Part shown: positions 4 through 23,981 of the stretch, piece after piece | How the letters are laid out: each line of letters opens with the position of its first letter | How positions within the stretch are numbered: the first letter of the stretch is position 1 | From: Nitrospiraceae bacterium | Lineage (GTDB): Bacteria > Nitrospirota > Nitrospiria > Nitrospirales > Nitrospiraceae | Length of the DNA stretch: 60,645 nucleotides | NCBI GenBank assembly: GCA_041487795.1 | Contig: JBGPNZ010000001.1 | Location: 1-60,645 of the forward strand | Reading direction: 5' to 3' | Translations under genes and position numbers: made by a program | The notes under the pieces: generated by a model | The model's input: only the letters and a program-made list of their open reading frames with translations | What the model was told of the DNA's origin: nothing | Databases searched by the model: none

Positions 4-588
4 ATGGCCGAGGACAAGTCTTCGGCCATCTACGTCATCGAAGAGCCGCCTGGCAAGAAGGACATCCTGTATGGCGGGACGAAGTACTCGCTTCCCATGC
101 CGTGGATCTACTTCTTCGTCAAGGCGACCAAAGACGCGACCGTCTCGGCGTTCCACGCGATGTACATCCTCTTCTCGAAAACGCGGCTGGAGACGTTGGA
201 ACAAGAGACCCTTCTTGTCCCCTACCTCTCCAACCTCTTCAGGCATGGCGGGGTATGCATGAGCCACGTCACGGCGTACAAGGCCAAGACTCCGATGAAC
301 GTGGTGCGGCTTGCCATCGGATGGTTCTGGGACTCACCAGGGAACTATTTCTGGGACTTCACCAAGCCTCCGCCAGAACTTGCAGCAGGAGGTTCGGGCC
401 TTACGCAATGGCAGGCGATGTCCGTCGAAGAGGCGCTCAAGATCTCCTGGGATGTGCCGCGCTTCAAGTCGATCAAGGCCGCCATCAAGGGCCTGTCCTT
501 CAAGTACTACACCGAGAATTACTGGAGGGTGCGCGACACGAAGGACTGTGTGAATGATATGACGGGGGAAATCGGCAACCCCTTTTGA
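4..588 (+). CDS. E2/UBC-like protein, paralog 1 (putative Ubl-conjugating enzyme)
   Basis: 194-aa ORF. Shares two motifs with 1534-2346, 37280-37963 and 38859-39473: a P-W-x-Y strand (PMPWIYF) and an N-x(7-12)-G-x-(I/V)-C flap (YLSNLFRHGGVC), like the HPN...C active site of UBC enzymes. It ends 15 nt before the RT gene. Upstream context is cut by the window edge. Confidence 0.5.
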   Translation: MAEDKSSAIYVIEEPPGKKDILYGGTKYSLPMPWIYFFVKATKDATVSAFHAMYILFSKTRLETLEQETLLVPYLSNLFRHGGVCMSHVTAYKAKTPMNVVRLAIGWFWDSPGNYFWDFTKPPPELAAGGSGLTQWQAMSVEEALKISWDVPRFKSIKAAIKGLSFKYYTENYWRVRDTKDCVNDMTGEIGNPF

Positions 589-602
589 AAAGAGAGGGAT
601 AA

Positions 603-1532
603 ATGGATCTTTCGCTCTACAAGATCGCTCGTATCCCGAAGGCCAACGGGAAGATGCGAATCCTCCACATCCCGAGTCCTGAACTCAAGGAGAAGCAGCG
701 AGAGCTTCTCTTCAACGAGTATCGAACGGGAGTCGGGCCAGGGCCCTACGCAACAGGCTTCGTCCGCGGACGGTCTATCCTTGACCACGCCAAGCCTCAC
801 GTCGGGAAGAAGTTCGTCGTAGAAGTCGACATCAAGGACTTCTTTCATTCCGTCCGCCCTTGGCATCTCTACAACGCGTGGAAAAGGGAAGGATTGAAAT
901 CGTCCGAGATCCTCGTCCGAAAGATGGTCGTCCGTGATCGGGCCTGGCAAAGGATGATGCCGCCGATCGGGCTCTTGGACATCGCCTTCGTCTGGGCTGG
1001 AAAGAAATGCTTCCTTCCGCAAGGAAGCCCGCTTTCGCCCTATCTTGCCAACCTCGCCATGAAGGAGGCGGACTTCAGGATCGGGATGCTGCTCAAGTTC
1101 TTCTTCAAGCCGGCAGACAGGGCCGCCTTCACGCGCTATGCAGACAACATCGCTCTGTCTTCGGACTCCGAGAGGATCGTCATCGCGGCAAAGCACATCG
1201 TCGACAAGATTCTTCTGTCTCTCAAGTTCCGCGTGAACCACGCGAAGTTCAGGGTCATGCGGAAATCGGCAAGGCAGAAGATCTGCGGGATCGTGGTCAA
1301 CGAGAAGGCCACCCTCCCGAAAAGGAAGCGCCACGAGATCCGTGGTCGGGTGGAAAACCTCTTTAAGGACGCGAAGGCCGGCAAGGAGATCGGTCTCGCG
1401 GAATTCAAATACGTGGACGGTTATCTGGCTTACGCAATCGGCATCGACCCGGCATGGGCGAACCGATTCAAGGCCAAGATGGCCATTGTTCGTGACTATC
1501 TACAGGCAAAACAGCTGAAGGAGGAAGTTTGA
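603..1532 (+). CDS. Reverse transcriptase, retron/Abi-like type, with YADN in place of YADD
   Basis: RT motifs: IPKANGKMRILHIP (RT1), GFVRGRSILDHAKPH..DIKDFFHS (RT2/3), LPQGSPLSPYLANLAM (RT4), FTRYADNIALSS (RT5), ICGIVVNEK (retron-like VTG region). 309 aa, with a purine-rich RBS upstream. Confidence 0.9.
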   Translation: MDLSLYKIARIPKANGKMRILHIPSPELKEKQRELLFNEYRTGVGPGPYATGFVRGRSILDHAKPHVGKKFVVEVDIKDFFHSVRPWHLYNAWKREGLKSSEILVRKMVVRDRAWQRMMPPIGLLDIAFVWAGKKCFLPQGSPLSPYLANLAMKEADFRIGMLLKFFFKPADRAAFTRYADNIALSSDSERIVIAAKHIVDKILLSLKFRVNHAKFRVMRKSARQKICGIVVNEKATLPKRKRHEIRGRVENLFKDAKAGKEIGLAEFKYVDGYLAYAIGIDPAWANRFKAKMAIVRDYLQAKQLKEEV

Positions 1533-1533
1533 A

Positions 1534-2346
1534 ATGCGTAAACAAGTCATCGTGATCATGGACGGCAAGTACTACGCCATCGACGGCAACGTGGTGGCCT
1601 CGGGAAACGCCGCCGAGATCAAGAAGGAACTCGAGGACATGTCCCTCATCCCGCTCACCATCCTGCCGCATGAGGAGATCTCCTGCGCGGCCTTCGCGAG
1701 GGTGGACGAGCGCCGGTTCTTCCTGATGTACGCCCCTTCCAAGCGCCGCCGCATCATGTGGAAGAACAAGGCGACCGGCGAGCGAAAGGAGTTCATGGTG
1801 TGGTTCCCGCATCTCTACATCGGTCTCTTCTTCCGCAACGGCGCGATCGAGCATGGCCACGCCATGGTCTCGTCGAAGAAGATCAAGAGCCCGAAGGACA
1901 TGCTGAACCGTCTTCCCTTGCCGAACACGTCGGGGACGTTCGGCCACATCTGCGAAGGCGCCAAGGGAGCCTGGGACGTGACCGCGGACACCGGGGATAC
2001 GGCGTTTTCGTACATCAAGTACTTCCTGGACTCCGAGTACATCGCGGACATCAACGATCACTTCATGCAGGTGCCCAAGCTCTTCTGGCCCGCGAACTGG
2101 GACTTGGGGAAGAAGATCTACGAGGAGTACATCGAGACGGTGAACCAGGAGATTCTCGCTTCCTGGCAGCACTGCTCGGAAACCGATGTCGAAAGGGTGA
2201 AGGCGCTCGATTGGGGCGCCCGGTTCACGATCCCGGATCTTATCCGCGCCATCTGGGAGACCAGCCCCGATGGGCTTGGGCCCGCCGCCGGCCAGATCGT
2301 GAACAACATCCTCGGTCAAGTCCAGGTCGTCGGCGACGAACAGTAA
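1534..2346 (+). CDS. E2/UBC-like protein, paralog 2
   Basis: 270 aa. The WFPHLYIGLFF strand is followed by RLPLPNTSGTFGHICEG (PN-x8-C), the closest of the four paralogs to the E2 HPN..G.IC signature. The ATG lies 1 nt after the RT stop. Confidence 0.6.
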   Translation: MRKQVIVIMDGKYYAIDGNVVASGNAAEIKKELEDMSLIPLTILPHEEISCAAFARVDERRFFLMYAPSKRRRIMWKNKATGERKEFMVWFPHLYIGLFFRNGAIEHGHAMVSSKKIKSPKDMLNRLPLPNTSGTFGHICEGAKGAWDVTADTGDTAFSYIKYFLDSEYIADINDHFMQVPKLFWPANWDLGKKIYEEYIETVNQEILASWQHCSETDVERVKALDWGARFTIPDLIRAIWETSPDGLGPAAGQIVNNILGQVQVVGDEQ

Positions 2347-2356
2347 AGGAGAAGCC

Positions 2357-2626
2357 ATGGCAGCAAATGAAGAGGAGGGGAAGAAGTTCCAGAACGAGAT
2401 CTGGTTCCTTCTTACCACCAGGCACAAGAAGGTGAAGACGCCCATGCTCATGGATGTTCTTGAGAATCCGGAAGGCCACGGCATCAAGAACGTCTACCCC
2501 GAGATGATGAAAGTCATCCATCGGACGCTCCGCAGGCAGGGCTTCGTCGCCGACCTTCCCGACACGCGCATGTCCGATCGTCTTTTCAAGAAACTACATG
2601 AGAATGGAAAGGAGGAGCTTCTGTGA
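2357..2626 (+). CDS. hypothetical protein (89 aa) in the Ubl operon
   Basis: RBS AAGGAGA upstream of the ATG. Its stop overlaps the GTG start of the next gene (GTGA). No recognisable motif. Confidence 0.55.
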   Translation: MAANEEEGKKFQNEIWFLLTTRHKKVKTPMLMDVLENPEGHGIKNVYPEMMKVIHRTLRRQGFVADLPDTRMSDRLFKKLHENGKEELL

Positions 2627-4191
2627 CACGGTTCTTTGTCACCCCGGACGGCGTCTATGAGGAGTACGAGGATCAGCTCTTCAAGGGGCTGATCAAGGTG
2701 TCGTTCCCCATCCACAACTACGACAAGGATGCGGGGGACACCTTGGACATGTCGAACGAGAAGATCGAGGAGAAGATCAAGATCGTCTTCCCCAAGATCC
2801 CGATCAACCTGTTCCAGGAGGCGCTCGCGTTCCTGGAATGGTGCTACAAGGAGAAGCGGACGGAGGGATTCCTCACGTTCCATCTTCTCAACAACAAGTG
2901 GAGTCTGGGTTGCCCCGAACAGTGGAACGGGGCAACATCGGTGTGCTACCATCCTGAGCTCCGCGAAGAGAGAGGCGGGCTCGTGGGAGACATCCATTCC
3001 CATCCGAAGTTTTCGTCGAGTGCTCACTCGCATACGGACTCCCTTGACGAGCGGAAGAACGCAGGCCTCTTCATGGTCGTCAAGGACTTCTCCCTCATGA
3101 ACTGTGAACCCGACATCCGGGGCGTCGTCCGCGGCACGACGTTCCAGATCAAGCCGAAGTATGTCTTCTCGATGGCCGGCATCAAGGATGAGGCCAACCC
3201 CGATGATCCCGAAAAGGCGGTCATCTCCTTCCCCGATGAATGGAAGGAAAGGGTGCATGTTGCTCCCTGCGAGCAGTGCAAAAGGGTCAAGGACGCAGGA
3301 GAGAAGAACGTCAAGGAGACAAAGGAGAAGGAGGAGAAGGAGAAGAGGCTGATCCCCAAGCGTCTCCTCGAAGCCTGGCGGAAGTCCCTCGACGGGAAGC
3401 CCTTCGGCGCCGAAATCATCGACTACCACGATCGGTGGGCCAAGGATTCGAAGTACAACGGGCACCTCGTCTGCCCGAACTACGGCTGCGGAAAGTTCGT
3501 CCGCAATCTCGAGTGCCCCGAATGCAAGAAGACCCTCACGCTGTACGAGGTCGCCAAGATGTTCGCCGAGCTCATCGATGAGACCGACTGCTTCGCGGAA
3601 ATGAAGGGCGATCTCAAGAAGCTCGAGGCGATCGCCGAGTTCTTCGAGAAACAGGCTGCTGGCAGCACGGCCACGGGTACGAGCAGCACGCCTGCGCATG
3701 ATCACGCGCATGATCACGACACCAAGAGGATCATCGTGCGGCCCGCAGCCAAGGATCCGGATGATACCGACATCATCCTCATCGTGGACGGGGACAAGTG
3801 CGAGGAGGACTGCCGCTTCAGGAAAGAGCAGATCTCCCACCAGCACATCCCCAACAAGAGCCAGCCGATCGTCGGACAGGAGCCGTGCCAGGACAAGGAA
3901 TGCGCCGAAATGGGGCATGTCCTCATCATGTGTAAGAACGTGTCCGCCGCAAAGGCGGCGCGTGCCGCGGAAATGAAAGATCAGGAGGCGGTCGCCGCCG
4001 CGTCGGCCAGGGAGGCCAGTGATGATCTTCCGCGGATGATTTACCCCGTCGAGTGCAGCGCCTCGTGCAACCTCGCCGGACAGCCGCACACCCATGGGCC
4101 TCGTCCGACGACGGAAGAGGCGCCGGCGAAAGTCGAGGAGACGAAGGCGACTCCCGCAACAGAACCCAACGACATGGTTGGGTGGGAATGA
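2623..4191 (+). CDS. JAB/MPN (JAMM) metallopeptidase with zinc-ribbon and low-complexity C-terminal region
   Basis: JAMM-like motif DIHSHPKFSSSAHSHTD with upstream Glu residues. CxxC pairs (CEQCKR; CPNYGCG...CPECKK). His/Asp-rich stretch HDHAHDHD. 522 aa. Confidence 0.75.
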   Translation: MTRFFVTPDGVYEEYEDQLFKGLIKVSFPIHNYDKDAGDTLDMSNEKIEEKIKIVFPKIPINLFQEALAFLEWCYKEKRTEGFLTFHLLNNKWSLGCPEQWNGATSVCYHPELREERGGLVGDIHSHPKFSSSAHSHTDSLDERKNAGLFMVVKDFSLMNCEPDIRGVVRGTTFQIKPKYVFSMAGIKDEANPDDPEKAVISFPDEWKERVHVAPCEQCKRVKDAGEKNVKETKEKEEKEKRLIPKRLLEAWRKSLDGKPFGAEIIDYHDRWAKDSKYNGHLVCPNYGCGKFVRNLECPECKKTLTLYEVAKMFAELIDETDCFAEMKGDLKKLEAIAEFFEKQAAGSTATGTSSTPAHDHAHDHDTKRIIVRPAAKDPDDTDIILIVDGDKCEEDCRFRKEQISHQHIPNKSQPIVGQEPCQDKECAEMGHVLIMCKNVSAAKAARAAEMKDQEAVAAASAREASDDLPRMIYPVECSASCNLAGQPHTHGPRPTTEEAPAKVEETKATPATEPNDMVGWE

Positions 4192-4223: not shown

Positions 4224-4967
4224 ATGGAAGGGACATTCGTAAGAACCGTGGTCGTAGGTTGTGGCGGTGTCTTTTCACGCCTGGCGCTCATCCTGGCCGA
4301 GAACTCGTTCTGCATGAAGGACGCTCCGAAAGAGATCCTTCTCGCGGACGGTGACGAGGTCGAGGCGAAGAACCTCGCGAGGCAGAGCTTTCTGCCGCAG
4401 GACATCAAGCGCAAGAAGGCGGAGGTTTGGGCGGATAGACTCGGGAAGCGGTTCCCCGATCTCAATGTCCGTCCCATGCCCGAGTTCGTCACTTCGAAGA
4501 ACATCGCCACGGTCATCCAGGACGGATCCATCGTGCTGTCGGCGGTGGACAACAACGCGACAAGGCTTCTCCTTTCCCAGCACGTGCAGACGCTCGGGAA
4601 TGCCATCCTCATCTCGGGTGGCAACGAGCTCACGGACGGGAACGTGCAGCTCTTCATCCGCCTGAAGGGCGATTCGAGAAATGCTCCCATCGAGGAGGTG
4701 CACGAGGAGTTCAAGAATCCCAAGGACAAGAATCCGGGGGACATCTCCTGCGAGGAACGGCTGGCCCTTCCCGGGGGCGAGCAGCTCGCGGAGACCAATA
4801 TGGCGGTCGCGCTCTACATGGCGCGTTTCTTCAGAACGATCATCACGGCTCTCGGGAAGCCTGAGGAATGGAAGGAGGTGGAAAGAGGGAAGTTGTTCGC
4901 GGAAGTGCAGTTCGACCTCGCGGACTTCACGAGCTGTGGATACAAGCGAGGGGCAGTACTCAGGTGA
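4224..4967 (+). CDS. ThiF/MoeB-type E1-like adenylating enzyme
   Basis: VVVGCGGVFSRLALILAE (GxGxxG Rossmann), LADGDEVEAKNLARQ (DxD..NLxRQ), AVDNNATR. At 247 aa it matches stand-alone ThiF/PRTRC-type E1-like proteins. RBS AAAGGAGG. Confidence 0.8.
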   Translation: MEGTFVRTVVVGCGGVFSRLALILAENSFCMKDAPKEILLADGDEVEAKNLARQSFLPQDIKRKKAEVWADRLGKRFPDLNVRPMPEFVTSKNIATVIQDGSIVLSAVDNNATRLLLSQHVQTLGNAILISGGNELTDGNVQLFIRLKGDSRNAPIEEVHEEFKNPKDKNPGDISCEERLALPGGEQLAETNMAVALYMARFFRTIITALGKPEEWKEVERGKLFAEVQFDLADFTSCGYKRGAVLR

Positions 4968-5024
4968 GGTAACACACGTGCAGTACGTTTACTTTCTTTT
5001 CCATCCTTAATTGGAGGAGGTTCC

Positions 5025-5273
5025 ATGGCCGCACAGATCCGTTCCGGCCCCCGCGTGACGCCGATGGGCGACTCGTACAAGGGGAAGACCATCGTCGGGA
5101 AGTCGGTGCGTGAGCTGCGCCAGTGGCTCGAGCACGATCTCCAGATCCCCGAGGGGGCGGAGGCCCGTGTCTCGACCGACGGCGGCGAGACGTCCAAGCG
5201 CGTGGCGGAGGATCACATCCTCGACCACGGTCAGCTGCTCGAGTTCACGCGTCCCGCGGGGACGAAGGGCTAG
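5025..5273 (+). CDS. small beta-grasp ubiquitin-like protein (ThiS/MoaD/Prok_Ub-like) ending in Gly
   Basis: 82 aa. Pattern ..GKSVRELRQWL...ILDHGQLLEFTRPAGTKG-stop. Strong RBS GGAGGAGGTTCC. It sits directly after the E1-like gene and is followed by a GC-rich hairpin. Confidence 0.6.
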   Translation: MAAQIRSGPRVTPMGDSYKGKTIVGKSVRELRQWLEHDLQIPEGAEARVSTDGGETSKRVAEDHILDHGQLLEFTRPAGTKG

Positions 5274-5295
5274 AGCCGGGTTGAAGTGAGGTAAA

Positions 5296-5341
5296 GGGGA
5301 GGGGGGCGGGAGGAGGTTCCAATCCCCGCCCCCCTCTTTCC
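5296..5341 (+). terminator. GC-rich hairpin closing the Ubl operon (weak intrinsic terminator)
   Basis: 12-bp stem GAGGGGGGCGGG / CCCGCCCCCCTC (5299-5310 / 5325-5336) followed by only TTT. The loop contains GGAGGTTCC. Confidence 0.45.
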
Positions 5342-5390
5342 ACACGTGTCACTAGGAACTCTATCTGTTGGCAGACGGAGAGTCAAGAAA

Positions 5391-5939
5391 ATGCCGATTG
5401 TTATTGGGGTCAAGAAGCCGGACAAGGCCATCCCGATCTACACGGCGAAAAAGGCCGCCGAGCTTCTCAAGGAAATCCGCGAAGAAGAGGATGAGGTCTT
5501 CTGCTGCATCTACCTCAATCCCGATCTTGAAATCACCGGTTTTGGCCCAGTGGCCGTAGGCTCGCTCATGTCCGTATCCATCGAGCCCAAGAACGTTTTC
5601 CGGTTCCCGTTCACGGACAAGTGGACGAAGTTCGTGATCATCGCCCACAACCATCCTGGACAACGGGAACCCAGGCCCAGCTCGAAAGACGAGGACAAGA
5701 CGTACGAGTTGACCGCGGCGGGGCGCATCACCGGGTTCCCGATCGTCGATGCACTCATCATCGGCCTTGAGGGGTACTACTCCTTCATGGAGCATGGGAA
5801 GATCTGGATTAAGGGAGATTCCTATCGCGAGAAGATGAAGGAGGAAGAAGACAAGGTCGGCGAGAACAAGCACAAGGGATCCACGCGTGCGAAGCGCGAT
5901 GAACTGCGCCCGTACCCGATGGTCTTCAGACGATCTTAG
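5391..5939 (+). CDS. radC: RadC-like JAB domain protein
   Basis: AHNHPGQREPRPSSKDEDKT matches the RadC/DUF2466 signature HNHPSG..PS..D..T. Start taken at ATG 5391; the open frame reaches 5346. Confidence 0.75.
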   Translation: MPIVIGVKKPDKAIPIYTAKKAAELLKEIREEEDEVFCCIYLNPDLEITGFGPVAVGSLMSVSIEPKNVFRFPFTDKWTKFVIIAHNHPGQREPRPSSKDEDKTYELTAAGRITGFPIVDALIIGLEGYYSFMEHGKIWIKGDSYREKMKEEEDKVGENKHKGSTRAKRDELRPYPMVFRRS

Positions 5940-5983: not shown

Positions 5984-6532
5984 CTACTTCCTGCCGGGAT
6001 GGCCGAAGAAGTAGTGTTCGATGACGGGCTTGGGCTCGTTCGTGTTATGCGACGTCTTCCCATACCAGCAATAGGCTTTGGGAAGGTACTTGACCTTCGC
6101 GTCCGCCCTGTTGAGGACATGCTTCTCGAGAACCAGATCCTCGGAAGCGATCGGGAGCTCGTCCGTCATCCCAGACCACACGCGGGTGAGCAGCCTCCCG
6201 ATGTCGTTGTTGCGGACGAAGATCGTGCCGCCCCAGACCGATCCCTTGTCGCTCCTGTGGACGGCGATGTCGAACCCCGTCTCGGTTTCAAAGAAGCTAA
6301 GAGGCTGGTGGACTTTGGCGTCGCAGTCGAGATAGAGGATGTTGTGGGTCGGATACAGATAGAGCATCCTGTTCACGAAGCTGGGTTTGATCCGGCAGTT
6401 CTTGAGCCAGGCTCCGCGATCGGGGATCTCCTCGACGTGATGGCCCATGTCGAGCGCACGGAGGGACTGCGTCAGAACCGTGGCGGCGTCACGGTACCTG
6501 GCGTTAGTGTAGAACGAGACTACTTTGAGCAT
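5984..6532 (-). CDS. putative nucleotide-sugar glycosyltransferase (GT-A-like)
   Basis: 182 aa. LYLDCD (DxD) in a GT8-like/nucleotide-diphospho-sugar transferase layout. Overlaps the 3' end of the SNF2 gene by 29 nt. Confidence 0.5.
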   Translation of the reverse strand: MLKVVSFYTNARYRDAATVLTQSLRALDMGHHVEEIPDRGAWLKNCRIKPSFVNRMLYLYPTHNILYLDCDAKVHQPLSFFETETGFDIAVHRSDKGSVWGGTIFVRNNDIGRLLTRVWSGMTDELPIASEDLVLEKHVLNRADAKVKYLPKAYCWYGKTSHNTNEPKPVIEHYFFGHPGRK

Positions 6533-8225
6533 CGGCCATCCTGATCAAATCGGCTTCCTTCATCCGTTTCCCGAAGAGGTACTCCACAAGATCCTTGTGC
6601 TGCTTGAAGCTGTTGACGAGATATTCGTCGATCGAGTTCTTGAGCGCGACGTCCACGTAGAGGACGGCGTTCTTCTGGCCCTTGCGGTGGAGGCGTCCTT
6701 CCGCCTGGGAGCGGACGCCATAAGACCACCAGTTGTTGATAAAGCCGCAGGTACTCGACATCTGAAGGTTAAGGCCGAATCCTCCCTTTTGAACCTGGGA
6801 GAGGAAGAAATCGGCATTGCCCTTCACGAAGAGCTCGCGTGCGTTTTCGGCGTGTTCTGCCGGCATGCGTCCATGGTAGGAGACCGCATGGAAGCCGGCC
6901 TTTCCAAGCAGCTTCTCCATCACCCAGAGGTCTTCCACGAAGCGGGAGAAGATCACGACCTTCTGCCCGCGGGTCTCCTCGGAAAGATCCAGTACCGCGT
7001 CGCCCTTGGCGTTGTCCTTGAAGTAGATGACATCGCCCTCGGCGTTCTTCGTCCAGCCCATGCCGATCTGCTGGACTCGGGTGATCCGGGACATCGCATT
7101 CTTGATGAGGACGAACTGCTGAGTAGAAGTCTCCGCGCCCTTCTTGACGGCTTCCACGGCGAAGTGGAACTCGTCCATCGCGCGGTCGATGGCCTCCTTC
7201 TGGTCGCCCACCGGTTCGACCCAGCGCACGGAATAGCTTTTAGGCGGCAGATCCGTAAGAACTTCTTCCTTCCGAACGCTCATGCCCGCGTAGCCCATCA
7301 GCTCCTTGAGCTCGGGCTTCATCTCCTCCTTGACCTCCTTGGGCGTCTTGCCTTTGGGGTCGAACTCCATGTACCGTTCGGCAAAGCGCATGAAGGAAGG
7401 GCTCGAGTACATCTCGCCCAGGAACCTCATCTGCGACCAGAAGTCAGTGACGTTCGAGATGAACGGCGTCCCGTTCAGGGCCACCACGTACTCGGCCCTG
7501 TCGGCGATGGCAATCGCCGCCCGAGTCCTCTGGGCGGCCTTGTTCTTGATGAAGCCCGTCTCGTCCCCAATGACGAAGTCGAACTTGTAGTCGAGGAACT
7601 CTTCTTCCATCCGTCGAGCCACGTCCCAGGACATGATCCCGAACGTGAGCCGGATCGGGTTGGGCTTCTTCCACTCTTCGAGCAGTCTCGAGCGGCGCTT
7701 CTTCGCTCCCTTGATCTCGATCACTTTCGGGATCACCGTGAGGTGCTTTTCCATTTCCTCGATCCAAGTCGACGTCAGGGAAAGCGGACACAGGATGAGC
7801 ACCTTGCTCTTCCCTTCGAACTTGAAGAGCTCCTCGGCCACCCAGAGGGCTCCGTAGGTCTTTCCGACGCCGACATCCCACCAGAGGCCGTTCCGCTTCA
7901 TGTAGCGGATGCGATTCTGGCCGATCTCCTGATGGGTCATCGCCTCGTTCTTGAGAGCGACCGTCTGGCCGTTCGGAGAGATGCACTGCTCGGAGAGAAG
8001 GATCTTATGGCGAAGTTTGGCGAGCCACGCTTCGACTTCCGAGATATCGTCCCCGGGCTGGTGGGGAGAGTTGATGGCCGAAAGAGCGACCAGGACGCTC
8101 GCCGGCACGATCCAGGCCTTTCGGATCTTATCCCAATGGGCACCTAGCGTCCGTACTTCTTCGTTCCTTTCGACAGGGAGATCCCTGAAGACGAAAGTGT
8201 TCCCAAAGTCGACGTAAACCCGCAC
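6504..8225 (-). CDS. SNF2-family helicase/ATPase
   Basis: DVGVGKTYGA (Walker A), VIGDETGFIKN (DExx), ALNGTPFISN (III), GGFGLNLQ and QAEGRLHRKGQ (V/VI). 573 aa. Confidence 0.9.
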   Translation of the reverse strand: MRVYVDFGNTFVFRDLPVERNEEVRTLGAHWDKIRKAWIVPASVLVALSAINSPHQPGDDISEVEAWLAKLRHKILLSEQCISPNGQTVALKNEAMTHQEIGQNRIRYMKRNGLWWDVGVGKTYGALWVAEELFKFEGKSKVLILCPLSLTSTWIEEMEKHLTVIPKVIEIKGAKKRRSRLLEEWKKPNPIRLTFGIMSWDVARRMEEEFLDYKFDFVIGDETGFIKNKAAQRTRAAIAIADRAEYVVALNGTPFISNVTDFWSQMRFLGEMYSSPSFMRFAERYMEFDPKGKTPKEVKEEMKPELKELMGYAGMSVRKEEVLTDLPPKSYSVRWVEPVGDQKEAIDRAMDEFHFAVEAVKKGAETSTQQFVLIKNAMSRITRVQQIGMGWTKNAEGDVIYFKDNAKGDAVLDLSEETRGQKVVIFSRFVEDLWVMEKLLGKAGFHAVSYHGRMPAEHAENARELFVKGNADFFLSQVQKGGFGLNLQMSSTCGFINNWWSYGVRSQAEGRLHRKGQKNAVLYVDVALKNSIDEYLVNSFKQHKDLVEYLFGKRMKEADLIRMADAQSSLVLH

Positions 8226-8898: not shown

Positions 8899-9642
8899 AT
8901 GGCGCCCTTCGTCTCTTGCATCATGAGCACGGGACTTCGGAGGAAGTTCCTGCCCCACGCCATCCGTTTTTGGAGCCACCAGACGCACCAGGATCGGGAA
9001 CTCATCATCCTGGACGACGACCCTGAGAGTTCCGAGGACTTGATCCCCAAGGACGAAAGGATCCGCTACGTCCGCGTCCCCTACATGACGCCGCTTGCAG
9101 CGAAGATGAACAAGGGGATCTCGATGGCCCGCGGGCCCTACATCCAGAAGATGGACGACGACGATTATTACCCTCCGAAGTTCCTGGGGATGATGGTCGA
9201 AACGATCCTGCCCTCTGGAGAGCCTTTTCTTTCGGCCGCAGGCTGCTCTCTTTGTCTCATCGCCTACACAGGCAAGCTCAAATTCACGGGCTATGAGTTC
9301 TTCCTGGGAGCCACCCTTTTCTTTCCGAAGTCGATCTGGGAGAAGATTCCCTTCAACGAGACGGTCATTCCCGAGTGTGATTACCGCTTCATGTGGGATC
9401 AGACCTTGGTAGGCGTGAAGCGGATCTCGGTCGTCTCCGATCCCGAGTTCTTCATGTTCACGCGGCATGGAGAACGCCATACCTGGGTGGAAGACCACAA
9501 TGTCAGTGTCGAGCAGTTCTTTTCGTACAGGAATGACCATACGAGAAGCCTCGAGCAGTACCTCGCGTCCGATCAGGAGAGTCTGAAGTTCTACCAGAAC
9601 CTGATCAAAGAGAAATCCAAGAAACAGGAGACCAAAGCATGA
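8899..9642 (+). CDS. family 2 glycosyltransferase (GT-A)
   Basis: N-terminal SCIMSTGLRRKFLPHAIRFWSHQTHQDRELIILDDD and MDDDDYYP (DxD). RBS GGAGG. Confidence 0.75.
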   Translation: MAPFVSCIMSTGLRRKFLPHAIRFWSHQTHQDRELIILDDDPESSEDLIPKDERIRYVRVPYMTPLAAKMNKGISMARGPYIQKMDDDDYYPPKFLGMMVETILPSGEPFLSAAGCSLCLIAYTGKLKFTGYEFFLGATLFFPKSIWEKIPFNETVIPECDYRFMWDQTLVGVKRISVVSDPEFFMFTRHGERHTWVEDHNVSVEQFFSYRNDHTRSLEQYLASDQESLKFYQNLIKEKSKKQETKA

Positions 9643-11054
9643 ACATCTCAAGCGTGAGACTCGGGCATGCGAACAACTCGAGCTCGACCCATTCGATCCT
9701 CCTCAACTCGCCGTCCAGATCCAAGAGCGGCATCGTTGAGAACTTCCAGTACGGATGGGAATGGTTCCATCTCAAGCACAAGGACGACAAGGCGATGTAC
9801 CTCTCGGCCCTGGTCTTCGTCTCTCTCCAGGGGGACATGTCCGCGGAGCACGCGGCGGTCATCGCCCATTCCCTGACGGGAATGAACCCGATCGACAGCC
9901 GCGAGAAGGACAAGTACTGGTCGGTCTATGTGGATCACCAGAGCGTGAATGCCTTCCCCCTCGGGTTCGGAACGGAACACTACGATGCGACCTTCATGAA
10001 GGAGTTCGTGGAGTACATCCGAGACACGCCTGAGATCTCGATCCGCGGCGGCAACGACAACGTGGAGGATCGTGATGAATCCGAGAGGAAGACCGCCACG
10101 GGCGAGGAGAGCATCCTGAACTCCCTCCCCAGGGACTGTGGGAAGGTCAAACTCTTCTCCAAGAAGGACAAGGACTGGTGGATCCTCTACAACAAGGAGA
10201 CGGGCGCCAAGCTCCGTGTTTCCTTCGGGAAGGAGCCCAAACCCTACACCAGTTCGTCGCAGCCCGAGCTCGTGGACATCAAGATCACGGACTACTGCCC
10301 CTACGGCTGCAAGTTCTGCTACCAGGACTCCACGAAGGGAGGGAAGCACGCGCCGCTGGGGATCCTCCAGCAGCTCGCCTACAACTGCCGGGAGGCCAAG
10401 GTCTTCGAAGTCGCGCTCGGCGGCGGTGAGACGACCCAGCACCCCCAGTTCACGGAAGTGCTCAAGGCCTTCGGGTGGAACGGAGTCACTCCCAACTTCA
10501 CGACCTTCAACATGAGCTGGGTGACCGATAAGGACAAGGTCGAAGCAGTGGAGAAGTTCTGCCGCAGCTTCGCGGTCTCCGACCCCTATTCGATCAAGCA
10601 GATCGCCCGGTGGAACGACGATCACCCTTACGGTTACGTCGATAAGACGGGGATCAAGGCCACGCTCCAGCTCCCGCTGGGATGCTACGAGGAGAAGGTC
10701 ACCAGAAAGGCTCTCGATGGCGCTTCGGCCCTGAACGTTCCTGTCACTCTCCTGGGATTCAAAGACCACGGGAGAGGCAAGGAGGTCGTTCCTGTCGATG
10801 CGTCCTGGATCATCGACTACCTCGTGAAGTCGGATTCGTTCCATGCCTTCGGCGCCGACTCGGTCTTCGTCGAGCAGTTCAGAGGCCAGCTCAAGTCCGC
10901 CGGGATCTCCGAGAAGCTCATGGTGAACAAGGAAGGCGCCTACTCCTGCTACATCGACGCGGTGAGCATGCAGGGCGCCGCATCCTCCTACACCAAGGAG
11001 CTTCATCCGTTCGATCCGAATAAGCCCTTTGAGAGGTTCCCGTACGCCGCATAG
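9639..11054 (+). CDS. radical SAM enzyme with ~200-aa N-terminal extension
   Basis: CPYGCKFC (CxxxCxxC) followed by ALGGGETT (SAM-binding GGE motif). The ATG overlaps the previous stop (ATGA). Confidence 0.85.
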   Translation: MNISSVRLGHANNSSSTHSILLNSPSRSKSGIVENFQYGWEWFHLKHKDDKAMYLSALVFVSLQGDMSAEHAAVIAHSLTGMNPIDSREKDKYWSVYVDHQSVNAFPLGFGTEHYDATFMKEFVEYIRDTPEISIRGGNDNVEDRDESERKTATGEESILNSLPRDCGKVKLFSKKDKDWWILYNKETGAKLRVSFGKEPKPYTSSSQPELVDIKITDYCPYGCKFCYQDSTKGGKHAPLGILQQLAYNCREAKVFEVALGGGETTQHPQFTEVLKAFGWNGVTPNFTTFNMSWVTDKDKVEAVEKFCRSFAVSDPYSIKQIARWNDDHPYGYVDKTGIKATLQLPLGCYEEKVTRKALDGASALNVPVTLLGFKDHGRGKEVVPVDASWIIDYLVKSDSFHAFGADSVFVEQFRGQLKSAGISEKLMVNKEGAYSCYIDAVSMQGAASSYTKELHPFDPNKPFERFPYAA

Positions 11055-22017: not shown

Positions 22018-22097
22018 GTAGTCTTCTCAGCGATCTCCAGAAAAATCGTCAAATTCCAAGATTGTCGCGATTTTTCCTGGGATGCTGAGAAGATTAC
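22018..22097. promoter_or_regulatory. divergent near-palindromic control region carrying motif copies 2 and 3
   Basis: GTAGTCTTCTCAGCG (22018-22032, facing dnaE) and GCTGAGAAGATTAC (22084-22097, facing the helicase) are inverted copies with 1 mismatch. Each follows GATTTTTC(C)..GG. Confidence 0.5.
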
Positions 22098-23515
22098 ATA
22101 GTATGGGGCACATCACGATCCGCCTCGGGAACGCCTGGAGCAAGCTCGAGACTGATCGCACCGAACTCGAACGCCTGGACAACGAACTGGCGGTCGAAGA
22201 CCCTGGGGCCTTCTGGGCGCGTCAGCGGCGTCCCGGCTGGGATGGGTTCTGGCACTTCGTCGACATGGTGAACGGCAAGTTCCCCACGGGACTGGCCGAA
22301 CGTGTCAAGAAGATGCGCCCGATCGACTGTGATACCGTCGATGCCCGTGTCCGCCCGCCCACCATCCCCTTCAACAAGGACATCCTGAGAGGTATCGAGT
22401 TCGCCGACCACCAGCGGGCTTCGATCCTGAAGATCCTGGAAAAGGGGATCGGGACGGTGGCAACTTCAGTGGGTAGCGGCAAGACCGAACAGGGGATCGG
22501 GATCGCCTGTCACGTCCACGGACTCTGCGTCTGGCTCACCCATCGGCGCGATCTCATGCACCAGACCGCGGAGCGGATCCTCTGGAGAACGGGCAGCGAG
22601 GCCGCCAAGATCGGGGACGGCATCTGGGACGACGTCAGCCCCAAGACCAAGTTCCTGGTCGGCATGCCCCAGACGATCCTGACCGACATGGACACCTTCC
22701 GCTGGCAGACCAAGGACGCCAACGTCATGATCGTCGACGAGTGCCATACGGCCAGCGCCGCCAACGACTGGTATAACGTCTCTCTCATGGTGCCTTCGTA
22801 CTATAGGGTCGGTCTCACGGGCACGCCCGACATCGGAGACCCCGTCCGCGAACGGCGCCTGGAGGCCGCGACGGGAGAGGTCGTGATCCGCATCCGGTCA
22901 GGAGAGATGGCCAAGATCGGTTGGGTCGCTCCGGCCAGGGTTCACTATCACAAAGTCCATAACCAGGCCGTCCATGGCGTCACTTACATGGACGCGAGAC
23001 GGATCCTGATCGAAGAGAACCCCGAGCGCAATGCGATGATCATCGAGCTGGCCATGAAGGAGGCCAGAAGCGGCAAGCGCTGCCTGATCATCTGCGACAC
23101 CGTCAAGCATGCCAAGATCATCTCCGAAGTCCTGGCGGGGGAGAGCGTCAGATCCAGGTTCCTCTACGGAGGCCACTCGAGCGCCGCCCGGAACGAGGCA
23201 AAGAAAGAGTTCAAGAGCGGCGCGCTCGAGATCGTGATCACCACTCCCATCTGGGACTTGGGCGTCGACATACCCGAGATCGAGACAGTCATCCTGGCCG
23301 CCGGCGGCAAGAGCGCCGTCAGGGTCATCCAGCGCTGCGGCCGGGCCCTCCGGACGAGCAAGGGCAAGACCCTGGCCACCATCCATGACTTCTTCGACAC
23401 TGGCTCCCGCTACACCATGCGGCACTCCGAGGCCAGGATGAAGGCGTGCAGGGATGAGGGGTTTGAGATTGCTGGCGAGCTCAAGCCGAAGCCTACCGCC
23501 GCGCCGCAGCGGTAG
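22082..23515 (+). CDS. SF2 DEAD/DEAH-box helicase (UvsW/RecG-like)
   Basis: SVGSGKTEQG (Walker A), MIVDECH (DExH), LTGTP (III), QRCGRALR (VI). The motif copy inside 22084-22097 suggests the real start may be ATG 22103. Confidence 0.85.
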   Translation: MLRRLHSMGHITIRLGNAWSKLETDRTELERLDNELAVEDPGAFWARQRRPGWDGFWHFVDMVNGKFPTGLAERVKKMRPIDCDTVDARVRPPTIPFNKDILRGIEFADHQRASILKILEKGIGTVATSVGSGKTEQGIGIACHVHGLCVWLTHRRDLMHQTAERILWRTGSEAAKIGDGIWDDVSPKTKFLVGMPQTILTDMDTFRWQTKDANVMIVDECHTASAANDWYNVSLMVPSYYRVGLTGTPDIGDPVRERRLEAATGEVVIRIRSGEMAKIGWVAPARVHYHKVHNQAVHGVTYMDARRILIEENPERNAMIIELAMKEARSGKRCLIICDTVKHAKIISEVLAGESVRSRFLYGGHSSAARNEAKKEFKSGALEIVITTPIWDLGVDIPEIETVILAAGGKSAVRVIQRCGRALRTSKGKTLATIHDFFDTGSRYTMRHSEARMKACRDEGFEIAGELKPKPTAAPQR

Positions 23516-23535: not shown

Positions 23536-23652
23536 ACCATGTATGTATTCTTTCTGAGAATACCCTTCTTTCAGTTCTACAAGCTACCTAAATATCCTGC
23601 TCTTTCGTGCCTCAGGAATAGCGGTAGTTCTCAGATAGAATACATACATGGT
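23536..23652. repeat. 25-nt inverted repeat pair with ~67-nt AT-richer spacer
   Basis: ACCATGTATGTATTCTTTCTGAGAA (23536-23560) pairs with TTCTCAGATAGAATACATACATGGT (23628-23652), with 1 mismatch. Lies in a ~500-nt non-coding gap before the replication-initiation genes. Confidence 0.8.
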
Positions 23653-23762: not shown

Positions 23763-23791
23763 TTGACATCGGCTCTAGGAAGACGTATATA
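23763..23791 (+). promoter_or_regulatory. sigma70-like promoter
   Basis: TTGACA (23763-23768), a 17-nt spacer, then TATATA (23786-23791). Confidence 0.55.
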
Positions 23792-23797
23792 GGGACA

Positions 23798-23981
23798 GAG
23801 GAAGAAGCGCCTTCTGCCCCGTCGGCAGAGGGATGTCGTTTTAAGTGGGTTCAGGCCAGACATGACGAGATACTGTCGTCGATCGAGCCCCTCTACGGGG
23901 GCGCAGTGCGTGGGGAACCCTTTCTTCCTCTACGCATGTCTGGCCCGCGCCTGCGATCCCCGTAGCGGGGCTTTTTCTTTT
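23798..23981 (+). ncRNA. structured leader / candidate ncRNA ending in an intrinsic terminator
   Basis: Two long-range pairings cross each other: GAGGAAGAAG (23798-23807) with CTTTCTTCCTC (23920-23930), and GGCCAGACATG (23854-23864) with CATGTCTGGCC (23935-23945). There are internal hairpins. The 3' end is CCCCG-TAG-CGGGG followed by CTTTTTCTTTT (23958-23981). Confidence 0.4.

Follow-up and report, generated by a model that had tools for sequence, protein, structure and literature searches.

Among the closest described systems to the locus reported here are retrons. Their reverse transcriptases (RTs) are characterized by a YxDD active site that acts on a noncoding RNA (ncRNA) encoded in cis. 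Known retron effectors include nucleases, NDT, TIR, protease and transmembrane proteins and the like. To our knowledge, the ncRNA is part of the operon in the retrons described so far. Two regions have been reported as hallmarks of retron RTs, namely region X (NAxxH) and region Y (a VTG triplet), with the H and the G called the most conserved residues (Mestre et al., 2020; PMC7736814). The words "ubiquitin" and "ThiF" have zero occurrences in this classification of retrons.

Here, we analyzed an RT gene located near the start of a 60.6-kb stretch of DNA (hereafter the window), within an operon of ubiquitin-like conjugation genes (Table 1). Similar to the retrons Ec86/Eco1, Ec78/Eco7, Ec83 and Ec67/Eco2, the window RT has motifs 1-7, region X (in the form xAxxH) and region Y (xxG), and its predicted fold is the same over the full length; the operon contains an effector-type gene set, and relatives of the window have an adjacent ncRNA composed of a closing stem, small hairpins and a long hairpin. 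On the other hand, the window RT has YADN instead of YADD and its locus lacks an msr-msd, the ncRNA of the relatives is located downstream of the RT gene (between RT and effector), the effector set consists of E2, JAB, E1, Ubl and RadC, the RT clade has an insertion of roughly 30-40 aa, and the operon is carried by large phages.

Table 1. Features of the RT-containing operon in the window.
Feature	Coordinates	Strand	Basis or remark
E2a, 3' part of a Prok-E2_D-like gene, cut by the window start	4..588	+	tblastn, alignment A6
14-nt spacer with ribosome-binding site GAGAGGG	589..602	+	sequence read
Retron-type reverse transcriptase, 309 aa	603..1532	+	ATG start; Pfam RVT_1 and retron RT models
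Motif A catalytic Asp codon (D76, GAC)	828..830	+	intact, invariant in clade
Motif C codons TAT GCA GAC AAC (Y-A-D-N)	1137..1148	+	N182 codon AAC at 1146-1148
E2b, E2-like, 270 aa	1534..2346	+	ATG 1 nt past RT stop (TGAaATG)
Small conserved protein, 89 aa	2357..2626	+	syntenic in relatives; alignment A11
JAB/JAMM-domain protein, 522 aa	2623..4191	+	Pfam Prok-JAB 4.2e-06 (27 bits, cutoff 25)
ThiF/E1-like adenylyltransferase, 247 aa	4224..4967	+	Pfam ThiF 1.5e-24
Ubl-like small protein, 82 aa, ends ...GTKG	5025..5273	+	synteny; C-terminal K-G
RadC-like JAB protein, 197 aa, last gene of conserved block	5346..5939	+	Pfam RadC 9.7e-22

Judged by sequence profiles and predicted fold, the window RT is of the retron type, and both lines bear out the initial annotation of a retron-like RT. 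Residues 11-230 match Pfam RVT_1 (E 4.5e-22), PADLOC retron RT models reach ~1e-50, and the best 25 PADLOC matches listed were all retron-type RT models. When the PDB was searched with the RT family profile (A1), the Ec86, Ec67, Ec78 and Ec83 retron RTs were found at 1e-56 to 1e-45 and group II RTs at 1e-19 only. Retron RTs were also the top Foldseek matches of the AF2 model (pLDDT 95; TM 0.72-0.76). The score for the NCBIfam model retron_St85_RT was below its cutoff (164 vs 235 bits). Region X reads H-A-K-P-H (residues 62-66), in which the N of NAxxH is replaced, and region Y reads I-C-G (227-229), in which the V-T of VTG is replaced; H66 and G229 are invariant across the clade and A63 is nearly so. 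The clade-specific insertion (roughly 30-40 aa) was located by alignment between motifs 2 and 3. It is very improbable that the protein belongs to a different class with no relationship to retrons, such as group II intron maturases, DGR RTs or the DRT/UG/Abi defense RTs. The scores in favor of such an assignment are weak and sub-threshold, including 62 bits for group II (TIGR04416, cutoff 300), 30.5 bits for Drt2 (cutoff 390) and 25.5 bits for Drt3a (cutoff 200), whereas retron models far outscore the other RT classes in PADLOC, NCBIfam, PDB profiles and Foldseek. Moreover, the most conserved residues of the retron-specific regions X and Y are present, relatives bear retron-like ncRNAs, and no intron RNA family was detected by Rfam near the RT or elsewhere in the window. 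Both the group II RT/maturase and the DRT/UG/Abi identities were rejected on these scores, the former also on the Rfam result.

Motif C of the window RT lies in the context FTRYADNIAL (Y179, A180, D181 and N182), and motif B (LPQGSPLSP) and K215 are intact. The YADN box in the presence of the other palm motifs, as first noted, was read directly from both the codons and the alignment. All of the other catalytic and dNTP-binding residues (K13, R19, D76, Q140/G141, Y179, D181 and K215) show no variation among the N, G and D lineages. The earlier proposal to check whether the D-to-N change is conserved in homologs had a clear outcome: the same GAC AAC codons are present in two close homologs from other samples (P0002 and P0003 from loci L002 and L003; 86% and 83% identity), and the AAC codon is common to the window, L002, L003, L091 and L172. 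Among the 204 nearest retron-like RTs, YADD was observed in 150, YADG in 14 and YADN in 12. The neighbor-joining tree grouped YADN and YADG sequences into one clade, sister to the YADD group. One clade has exclusively N at residue 182 and the other exclusively G, which implies that this position is still constrained. The codons used at the second motif C position are GAC, AAC and GGN; thus, N and G are each one step from D. D-to-N changes at this position have also occurred in a number of unrelated retron-like RTs (P0026, P0133, P0142, P0151 and L012).

The RT is under purifying selection as estimated from coding sequences, with a dN/dS of 0.10 against the L002 homolog (86% amino-acid identity); the values for E2b and ThiF/E1 are 0.105 and 0.07. 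Comparison of the sequences demonstrates that YADN is a fixed and selected state of the window lineage, with YADG in the sister lineage and YADD in the next group out. The initial annotation had considered that homologs might uniformly have YADD and that this copy might be an isolated mutation or a decaying gene, which is not what we observed. The chance that the Asn represents a sequencing or assembly error or the mark of a decaying pseudogene is negligible: the sole support for it is the deviation from YxDD itself, and it is already refuted at the sequence level by the same codon in independent assemblies, an intact reading frame, the low dN/dS, and the fixation of N or G across a clade whose members are just 44-59% identical to the window protein. 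In other polymerases, Asn at the equivalent position of motif C is functional, such as in the GDN of Mononegavirales L and the ADN of birnavirus VP1. These enzymes resemble the window protein in having Asn as the equivalent palm residue while being catalytically active; however, they are RNA-dependent RNA polymerases, whereas the window protein is an RT. Where RTs have been mutated, as at D186 of HIV-1, the second Asp is known to be necessary, and we know of no characterized RT with YxDN or YxDG.

The genes are arranged in the order E2a, RT, E2b, 89-aa protein, JAB, ThiF/E1, Ubl-like protein and RadC. The embedding of the RT in an E2/JAB/E1/Ubl operon had been missed by the initial annotation. 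By tblastn, the truncated E2a matches genes designated Prok-E2_D at the loci L007 and L001; its full-length homolog (233 aa) lies just upstream of the RT in L003. The PxxY and N...G.xC motifs, including the Cys, are invariant in the E2 alignment (A6). PF14460 was matched by 6 of the 14 E2 family members (best 2.7e-08), and both E2-like proteins of the window scored below Pfam thresholds. E2b aligns with Prok-E2_D-like proteins and shares with them a conserved Cys140, and its L088 homolog has a faint Prok-E2_D match. It directly follows the RT (or RT plus ncRNA) in all clade loci with enough downstream sequence except L007, where a Prok-E2_D gene of the E2a type occupies the E2b position. The 89-aa protein and the Ubl-like protein have no match in Pfam or NCBIfam. 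The former has a syntenic counterpart of 81-102 aa in the relatives checked, and the latter corresponds to a syntenic gene of 72-89 aa that comes after the E1 gene; its C-terminal K-G is invariant in 9 homologs, some of which have short C-terminal extensions. The JAB protein contains the sequence HSHPKFSSSAHSHTD. The RadC gene is syntenic in L002, L004-L008, L088 and L089. Overall, the RT-E2-JAB-E1-Ubl-like-RadC synteny was observed in ~15 independent loci, and the block comprising E2b, the 89-aa protein, JAB, E1, the Ubl-like protein and RadC is conserved beside the RT in all relatives examined. Two loci found with E2b as query both carry the RT too. The genes of this operon might serve as retron effectors.

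Apart from the RT, the operon resembles two groups of described systems. Like the PRTRC or Prok-E2_D cassettes of mobile elements (TIGR03735, TIGR03736 and PF14460), it combines a separate ThiF-like E1 with a JAB peptidase, a Prok-E2_D-like protein in which a Cys is conserved, and a small protein whose C-terminal residue is Gly. However, the scores are far below the cutoffs (23.8 vs 101.8 bits for the JAB protein against PRTRC_A; 57 vs 144.75 bits for ThiF/E1 against PRTRC_ThiF), no ParB domain was found among the scanned window neighbors, and the operon contains two E2 paralogs, a RadC gene and an RT. Similarities to bacterial antiphage systems with E1, E2 and JAB components (Bil, CBASS type II Cap2/Cap3 and 6A-MBL) include low-scoring matches of ThiF/E1 to the PADLOC E1-E2 and BilD models and to the NCBIfam 6A-MBL cap2_3 model, as well as the same predicted enzymology (adenylation, thioester transfer and JAB deconjugation). 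Different from these systems, the window operon has neither a CD-NTase nor a fused E1-E2, is encoded by a phage and includes an RT component. None of the PADLOC system models was matched by the other genes of the operon.

The operon was found solely on metagenomic contigs that resemble large phages. No clade member was detected in GTDB (185,579 species genomes), in which the best cellular relative of the RT is only 36% identical; this suggests that the RT module is carried by large phages and not by bacterial chromosomes. Only two cassette loci were present in IMG/VR, and at least one new locus (L144) was identified among the matches listed for the JGI metagenome collection. Phage-borne retron-like RTs are also present in cultured phages, such as Staphylococcus Kay-type and jumbo phages, Klebsiella phage 4LV2017 and Pseudomonas Pf phages, but these are at most 33% identical to the window RT. 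E2b had no match in cultured phages or plasmids; thus, none of the cultured phages with retron-type RTs carries the cassette.

In relatives with each of the three motifs (YADD, YADN and YADG), the space that separates the RT gene from the E2 gene following it contains a retron-like ncRNA. Its components are a closing stem, a covarying triloop hairpin and a long hairpin, and fold z-scores range from -4.5 to -6.4. Copies with flanking inverted repeats (a1/a2) are present in L004, L006, L088, L089, L008, L172, L001, L144, L173 and L174, the last six of which represent N/G lineages with a complete ncRNA (closing stem and hairpin, the closing stems being defined by folds of individual sequences and repeat calls and not by a covariation count). 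Within the triloop hairpin, 98.4% of cells are paired, and 5 of the 8 pairs show compensatory changes; for four of the five measures, the observed values were reached by 0 of 500 shuffles. A G follows the 5' arm of the closing stem in 4 of the 5 N/G-type ncRNAs. In the MAFFT full-length alignment of N/G-type ncRNAs, the 3' arms are out of register. Considering that several YADN and YADG relatives have the ncRNA, Asn alone is no sign of a lost RNA partnership.

In the window, the RT gene is separated by 14 nt from the upstream gene and by 1 nt from the downstream gene. The earlier observation that these flanks hold no adjacent ncRNA stands, and it is meaningful because relatives encode the ncRNA exactly at the position of the 1-nt gap. 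Two covariance models were built, one (R1) from YADD-type and L008 hairpins and the other (R2) from all types. The best scores for either model in the 60.6-kb window were 14-15.5 bits (E 0.13-0.16), compared with 24-46 bits for true copies; none of these is credible, and the best R2 match (51179-51213, minus strand) lies inside a tRNA-Asn gene. Scans of sister loci (3.9-12.3 kb) revealed no match in L002, L003 or L091 and one weak match in L090 (16.5 bits, E 0.19). Simple hairpin-motif searches gave no hits or hits at chance level, and no long inverted repeat was detected in these ncRNA-less loci or in or near the window operon. Outside coding sequence, the window has a single inverted repeat whose arms reach 25 nt or more (23536-23652). 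In L090, an inverted repeat of 21 nt (2795-2988) was discarded, being a terminator followed by a coding gene. Thus, the ncRNA is absent from the window group, from L091 (whose sister L172 keeps it) and from L090, and as judged from this distribution it was lost at least three times. Deletion of the ncRNA on several occasions is a simpler explanation than its relocation on several occasions, and this speaks for a dispensable ncRNA. Losses were found in 3 of 9 N/G lineages vs 0 of 4-5 YADD lineages, a difference that is not significant (Fisher exact p ~0.23). A search for convergent amino-acid changes in the ncRNA-less RTs found none, and residues conserved in ncRNA-bearing RTs are almost all kept in them, including in the thumb.

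The reading that we favor, at slightly less than an even chance, is that a retron-derived RT has been retained within a phage ubiquitin-like module as one of its subunits and works without cis-templated msDNA. In the window lineage, the RT would no longer make such msDNA and would have been retained for a role that needs no ncRNA, most likely as a nucleotide- or nucleic acid-binding partner or regulator of the E2/E1/JAB machinery, with whose genes it may be translationally coupled. Its polymerase activity might be weak, vestigial or dispensable. It should be mentioned that an invariant remaining active site is unlike the usual dead enzyme and runs counter to this reading, as do the constraint on residue 182, the complete ncRNAs of six N/G lineages, the retention of nearly all conserved residues in the ncRNA-less RTs and the non-significant difference in ncRNA loss between N/G and YADD lineages. 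Instead, the YADN enzyme could be a working retron RT that uses two carboxylates and the Asn carbonyl, with an msr-msd moved outside the window and msDNA produced in trans. We regard this as rather unlikely. In its favor, the rest of the active site is invariant, the ncRNA-less RTs keep nearly all conserved residues of the ncRNA-bearing ones, D-to-N has arisen repeatedly, and Asn is functional in GDN and ADN polymerases. YADN and YADG relatives keep complete ncRNAs, mostly with a G after the 5' arm of the closing stem; the six N/G lineages with a complete ncRNA imply that an RT with N or G can still partner with an RNA and possibly reverse transcribe. The window is probably part of a larger genome, and a template could be encoded elsewhere. 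However, such an enzyme would require three independent relocations of the ncRNA, the RT-linked hairpin has no copy in the 60.6 kb or in the sister loci of 3.9-12.3 kb, the second Asp is needed in the RTs mutated so far, and the Gly of the sister clade cannot bind metal.

Still less probable is a non-canonical nucleotidyl transfer in the absence of a retron ncRNA, in which the RT would act untemplated, be protein-primed, or copy tRNAs or operon transcripts, and its product would feed or regulate Ubl conjugation. The conservation of dNTP-binding and catalytic residues without a cis template would fit such an activity, and so would the tight coupling of the RT gene to E2 genes on both sides and the large tRNA array within the same window. 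Nevertheless, this scenario is purely inferential: the fold is that of a plain retron RT, neither a priming Tyr/Ser feature nor an additional domain was seen, and the RT has no lineage-specific changes that hint at a new substrate.

On a broader level, we tentatively propose, with confidence well short of even, that the large uncultured phages carry an undescribed hybrid that connects a retron (RT plus ncRNA/msDNA) with a full Ubl-conjugation set (two E2s, E1, JAB, Ubl and RadC); "undescribed" here refers to the retron classification of Mestre et al. (2020; PMC7736814) and general knowledge. The loci may form a natural series that begins with YADD and very long msd-like hairpins, continues with YADN/YADG and compact ncRNAs, and ends with YADN/YADG lacking an ncRNA. 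They would then represent either the first natural active RTs with two carboxylates (YxDN/YxDG) or a retron RT turned into a non-polymerizing regulatory subunit of the Ubl machinery. If true, this would link reverse transcription and ubiquitin-like conjugation, otherwise separate toolkits, provide a natural experiment on the need for the second motif C aspartate in an RT, and show what a retron RT is capable of without msDNA. The presence of a retron-type RT as a fixed part of an E1/E2/JAB/Ubl operon in large phages rather than in the host may point to a phage-side use, such as counter-defense or superinfection exclusion.

It had also been suggested that the RT might use a distant template, with candidate structured RNAs at 23798-23981 and 39517-39751 or the tRNAs. 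No link between these and the RT emerged, and the RT-associated hairpin is absent from them. An Rfam scan of the window at gathering thresholds detected tRNAs only, and permissive E-values yielded only sub-threshold noise for the two regions. Both have promoter-like TTGACA/TAnAnT boxes and a terminator, with fold z-scores of -4.6 and -5.7, and thus resemble independent small-RNA genes, each transcribed from a promoter of its own.

The reverse transcriptase (RT) of the window is a retron-type enzyme with deviations, because profile searches and structure comparison indicate this class; the regions typical of retron RTs are matched in part. Each of the best 25 PADLOC matches listed was to a retron RT model (RT_other, RT_outgroup, RT_XIII and RT_III-A; ~1e-50). 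The NCBIfam model retron_St85_RT scored 164 bits, under its cutoff of 235; the NCBIfam group II model reached 62 bits, far under its cutoff of 300, and Drt2 and Drt3a were both far under theirs. Against the PDB, the RT family profile (A1) matched the Ec86, Ec67, Ec78, Ec83 and Kva2 retron RTs at 1e-56 to 1e-45 and group II RTs at ~1e-19. An AlphaFold2 model (pLDDT 95.1) superposed best on the retron Eco7/Ec78, Ec86, type I-A and Ec83 RTs (TM 0.72-0.76 over ~305 columns). Two regions define retron RTs (Mestre et al., 2020; PMC7736814): X, which reads NAxxH with H as its most conserved residue, and Y, which reads VTG with G as its most conserved residue. Here these regions read H-A-K-P-H and I-C-G, and H66 and G229 are invariant in the clade. 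The initial annotation of the gene as retron-like agrees with the PADLOC, PDB and AlphaFold2 results, and direct reading of the sequence confirmed the YADN box and the short flanking gaps that it had described. Motif C is FTRYADNIAL (codons TAT GCA GAC AAC, 1137-1148), and motif A Asp D76, LPQGSPLSP and K215 are retained. The gaps are 14 nt to the upstream ORF (end at 588), which is clipped by the window start and whose homolog in the related locus L003 has 233 aa, and 1 nt to the downstream ORF (start at 1534).

The YADN box is an old, selected state. Among the 204 nearest retron-like RTs, motif C reads YADD in 150, YADG in 14, YADN in 12 and YSDN in one. In the neighbour-joining tree, YADN (P0001-5) and YADG (P0006-17, P0117 and P0118) proteins form one clade (N/G), a YADD group (P0018-23) is its sister, and a YADN/YSDN branch (P0119, P0120) is placed just outside. 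At the second Asp position, the codons are GAC for D, AAC/AAT for N and GGN for G. Since either N or G can be reached from D in one step, and N from G only in two, the second Asp was replaced separately at least twice, and probably three times, in this small clade. For the Asn, the initial annotation had raised two counter-explanations, an isolated mutation and a sequencing error. The former is ruled out by the presence of N or G throughout the clade and by dN/dS against the related locus L002 (RT 0.10; downstream gene 0.105; ThiF 0.07), and the latter by identical GAC AAC codons in the nearest homologs (86% and 83% identity), which come from other, independent samples. Across 28 clade members, K13, R19, D76, G141, Y179, D181 and K215 never vary and Q140 almost never does. 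YADN (GAT AAT) also occurs in an unrelated retron-like RT (32% identity) on an IMG/VR contig (L012, 5798-6733), with a 664-nt gap upstream, and further YADN retron-like RTs are scattered (P0026, P0133, P0142 and P0151).

Relatives carry non-coding DNA at the exact place of the 1-nt gap of the window (see table). Flanking inverted repeats were observed in YADD loci, such as L004 (9810-9826 with 10110-10126). A small hairpin with a 7-8-bp stem, (C/T)G...CG closing and an NAA-type triloop is recurrent and confined to RT-downstream gaps, except for one copy ~0.8 kb upstream of the RT of L004. In 16 copies, 98.4% of cells were paired and five of the eight pairs had compensatory changes; none of 500 shuffles reached the observed value on four of five measures, with an alignment register chosen by hand. 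Five N/G gaps (L001, L144, L173, L174 and L172) have in common a GGGCG-GAA-CGCCC hairpin and a closed RNA whose outer stem (10-27 bp) is locus-specific in sequence; L144, L173 and L174 also hold a 26-29-bp hairpin, and fold z-scores of the four YADG gaps were -4.5 to -6.4. In YADD relatives the triloop hairpin is multi-copy (4-6 copies in L089 3772-5384; four in L004 7812-10882, one upstream of RT), and a CTCCGCGG(T/C)ATTACC(C/T)AG box is common to two units of L004; instead of one msr-msd, this suggests ncRNA units in tandem.

The retron-like ncRNA of the relatives is missing from the window. Two covariance models of the RT-linked hairpin (R1 and R2) recovered their training copies at 24-46 bits and, at 16.6-26.7 bits, a few additional ones in L004, L008 and L089. 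They found nothing above 15.5 bits (E 0.13) in the window, no match in L002, L003 and L091, and one weak match in L090 (16.5 bits, E 0.19); long inverted repeats were absent from these four related loci. The ncRNA is lacking in the window group, in L090 and in L091, although it is present in L172, the sister of L091. It was thus lost three times or more, each time in an N/G lineage; among the YADD loci compared, none was without ncRNA. The numbers are small (3/9 N/G lineages versus 0/4-5 YADD; Fisher exact p ~0.23, hand calculation).

The RT gene belongs, as a fixed component, to a phage operon for E2-like, JAB, E1 and Ubl-like proteins. The window resembles large-phage DNA, with genes for a helicase, a primase/helicase and ribonucleotide reductase besides at least 32 genes for tRNAs, and the contigs of relatives reach 148 kb, with gp32- and RecA-type genes. 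In every related locus with enough downstream sequence, the same block 3' of RT encodes an E2-like protein (242-299 aa; in L007 the Prok-E2_D gene itself), an 81-102-aa protein, JAB, ThiF/E1, a 72-89-aa protein and RadC. Alignment with genes called Prok-E2_D placed both RT-flanking genes in one E2-like superfamily with invariant PxxY and N...G.xC motifs, Cys included; 6/14 family members matched PF14460. The 82-aa protein has an invariant C-terminal K-G, and the short extensions in some homologs are like those of Ubl precursors. Searches of cultured phages, of plasmids and of 185,579 species genomes gave no match to the downstream E2-like gene (E2b), and the closest cellular RT is 36% identical to that of the window. 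A second, more upstream ubiquitin-like set (Prok-E2_D gene, 408-423-aa protein, longer ThiF of 318-335 aa and 64-83-aa protein) occurs in YADN and YADG lineages (L001 1076-4255; L090 703-2028; contig of P0002); it would precede the first base of the window and is therefore not visible there. Between the E2-RT block of L001 and its upstream ThiF/small-protein pair, an HNH-domain ORF on the minus strand is accompanied by group II intron RNA domains (4283-5887; Rfam RF01999 95.6 bits, RF00029 52.3 bits).

RT operon of the window and RT-E2b gaps of related loci
Feature	Locus	Position or gap	Strand	Remarks
RT ORF	window	603-1532	+	309 aa; Pfam RVT_1 residues 11-230, E 4.5e-22
E2-like E2b	window	1534-2346	+	conserved block
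Small protein	window	2357-2626	+	conserved block; 81-102 aa in relatives
JAB protein	window	2623-4191	+	conserved block
ThiF/E1 protein	window	4224-4967	+	conserved block
82-aa protein	window	5025-5273	+	72-89 aa in block of relatives
RadC	window	5346-5939	+	last gene of conserved block
YADD gap	L004	1324 nt		long hairpin, 64-nt arms, 97% complementary
YADD gap	L006	655 nt		long hairpin, 47-nt arms; two adjacent repeats, 30 and 24 nt
YADD gap	L088	788 nt		long hairpin, 75-nt arms, 99%
YADD gap	L089	1843 nt		long hairpin, 94-nt arms, 90%
YADG gap	L001	183 nt		
YADG gap	L144	365 nt		
YADG gap	L173	302 nt		
YADG gap	L174	263 nt		
YADN gap	L172	97 nt		element extends into called C-terminal tail of RT ORF
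YADN gap	L008	~1 kb		small hairpin; hairpins with 49-nt and 32-nt arms

Because the ncRNA was repeatedly and cleanly deleted under continued purifying selection on RT, the selected role of the protein would be independent of a cis ncRNA or msDNA. Translational coupling of RT and E2b (TGAaATG) suggests that the two may form a protein complex. We tentatively prefer, with slightly less than even confidence, the reading that RT is a regulatory or scaffolding subunit binding nucleotides or nucleic acids, whose polymerase activity would be weak or dispensable. Four observations count against this: no other part of the active site varies, position 182 is under constraint itself (one clade has N, the other G), the full ncRNA is retained in six N/G lineages, and the residues that are conserved in RTs with an ncRNA are not relaxed in those without. 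All of these would fit an active two-carboxylate RT using a template elsewhere in the genome, a reading that we consider less likely. The templates proposed in the initial annotation (23798-23981, 39517-39751 and tRNAs) found no support: the covariance models detected no credible copy of the RT-linked hairpin there, and the first two look like independent small-RNA units. The same four observations would also fit a non-canonical activity of RT, which seems quite improbable.

The window RT is predicted to descend from, and to work like, retron RTs. We do not file the locus as a retron because two defining features, the YxDD box and an adjacent msr-msd, are both missing. Its partner genes resemble PRTRC-type/Prok-E2_D cassettes as well as E1/E2/JAB defence systems, but fall under curated cutoffs. 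In the retron classification paper of Mestre et al. (PMC7736814), 'ubiquitin' and 'ThiF' occur 0 times each; this count covers that paper, and an earlier description may exist elsewhere.

Two stand-alone small-RNA-like units were observed in the window. In the unit at 23764-23981, a structured RNA of ~185 nt (fold z -4.6) follows a promoter-like TTGACA-N17-TATATA; the unit closes with a terminator (CCCCGTAGCGGGG plus T-run) and matched no Rfam family. A pseudoknot or alternative folds are suggested by two long-range helices (AGAGGAAGAAG/CTTTCTTCCTCT and GGCCAGACATG/CATGTCTGGCC) that cross. The unit at 39481-39752 has a promoter-like TTGACA...TAGAGT ahead of a structured RNA of ~235 nt (fold z -5.7), and a strong terminator at 39711-39746; its Rfam matches are all sub-threshold and lie on this terminator. 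An AT-rich inverted repeat (23536-23652; 25-nt arms, 96% complementary, 67-nt spacer) could be a replication origin or regulatory site; it is located in an intergenic region of 500 nt that follows the helicase gene (22082-23515), and a primase/helicase-like gene (24852-26798) lies downstream of it. A very large tRNA array (42833-60431, all + strand) contains 32 genes according to ARAGORN, for nearly all amino acids, and Rfam adds four tRNA-like matches (44993-45063, 46143-46214, 49310-49380 and 51075-51147). Directly upstream, a 539-aa protein (41152-42771) matches PHROG 850 ('RNA-binding protein', 4.2e-34) and may be linked to the Y RNA mentioned in the initial annotation. Two minus-strand genes adjoin the operon: an ORF weakly similar to nucleotide-diphospho-sugar transferases (5984-6532) and the gene of an SNF2-family helicase (6504-8225). 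Next, on the + strand, come a 197-aa ORF without a named family and the genes of a family 2 glycosyltransferase (8899-9642) and of a radical SAM protein (9639-11054).
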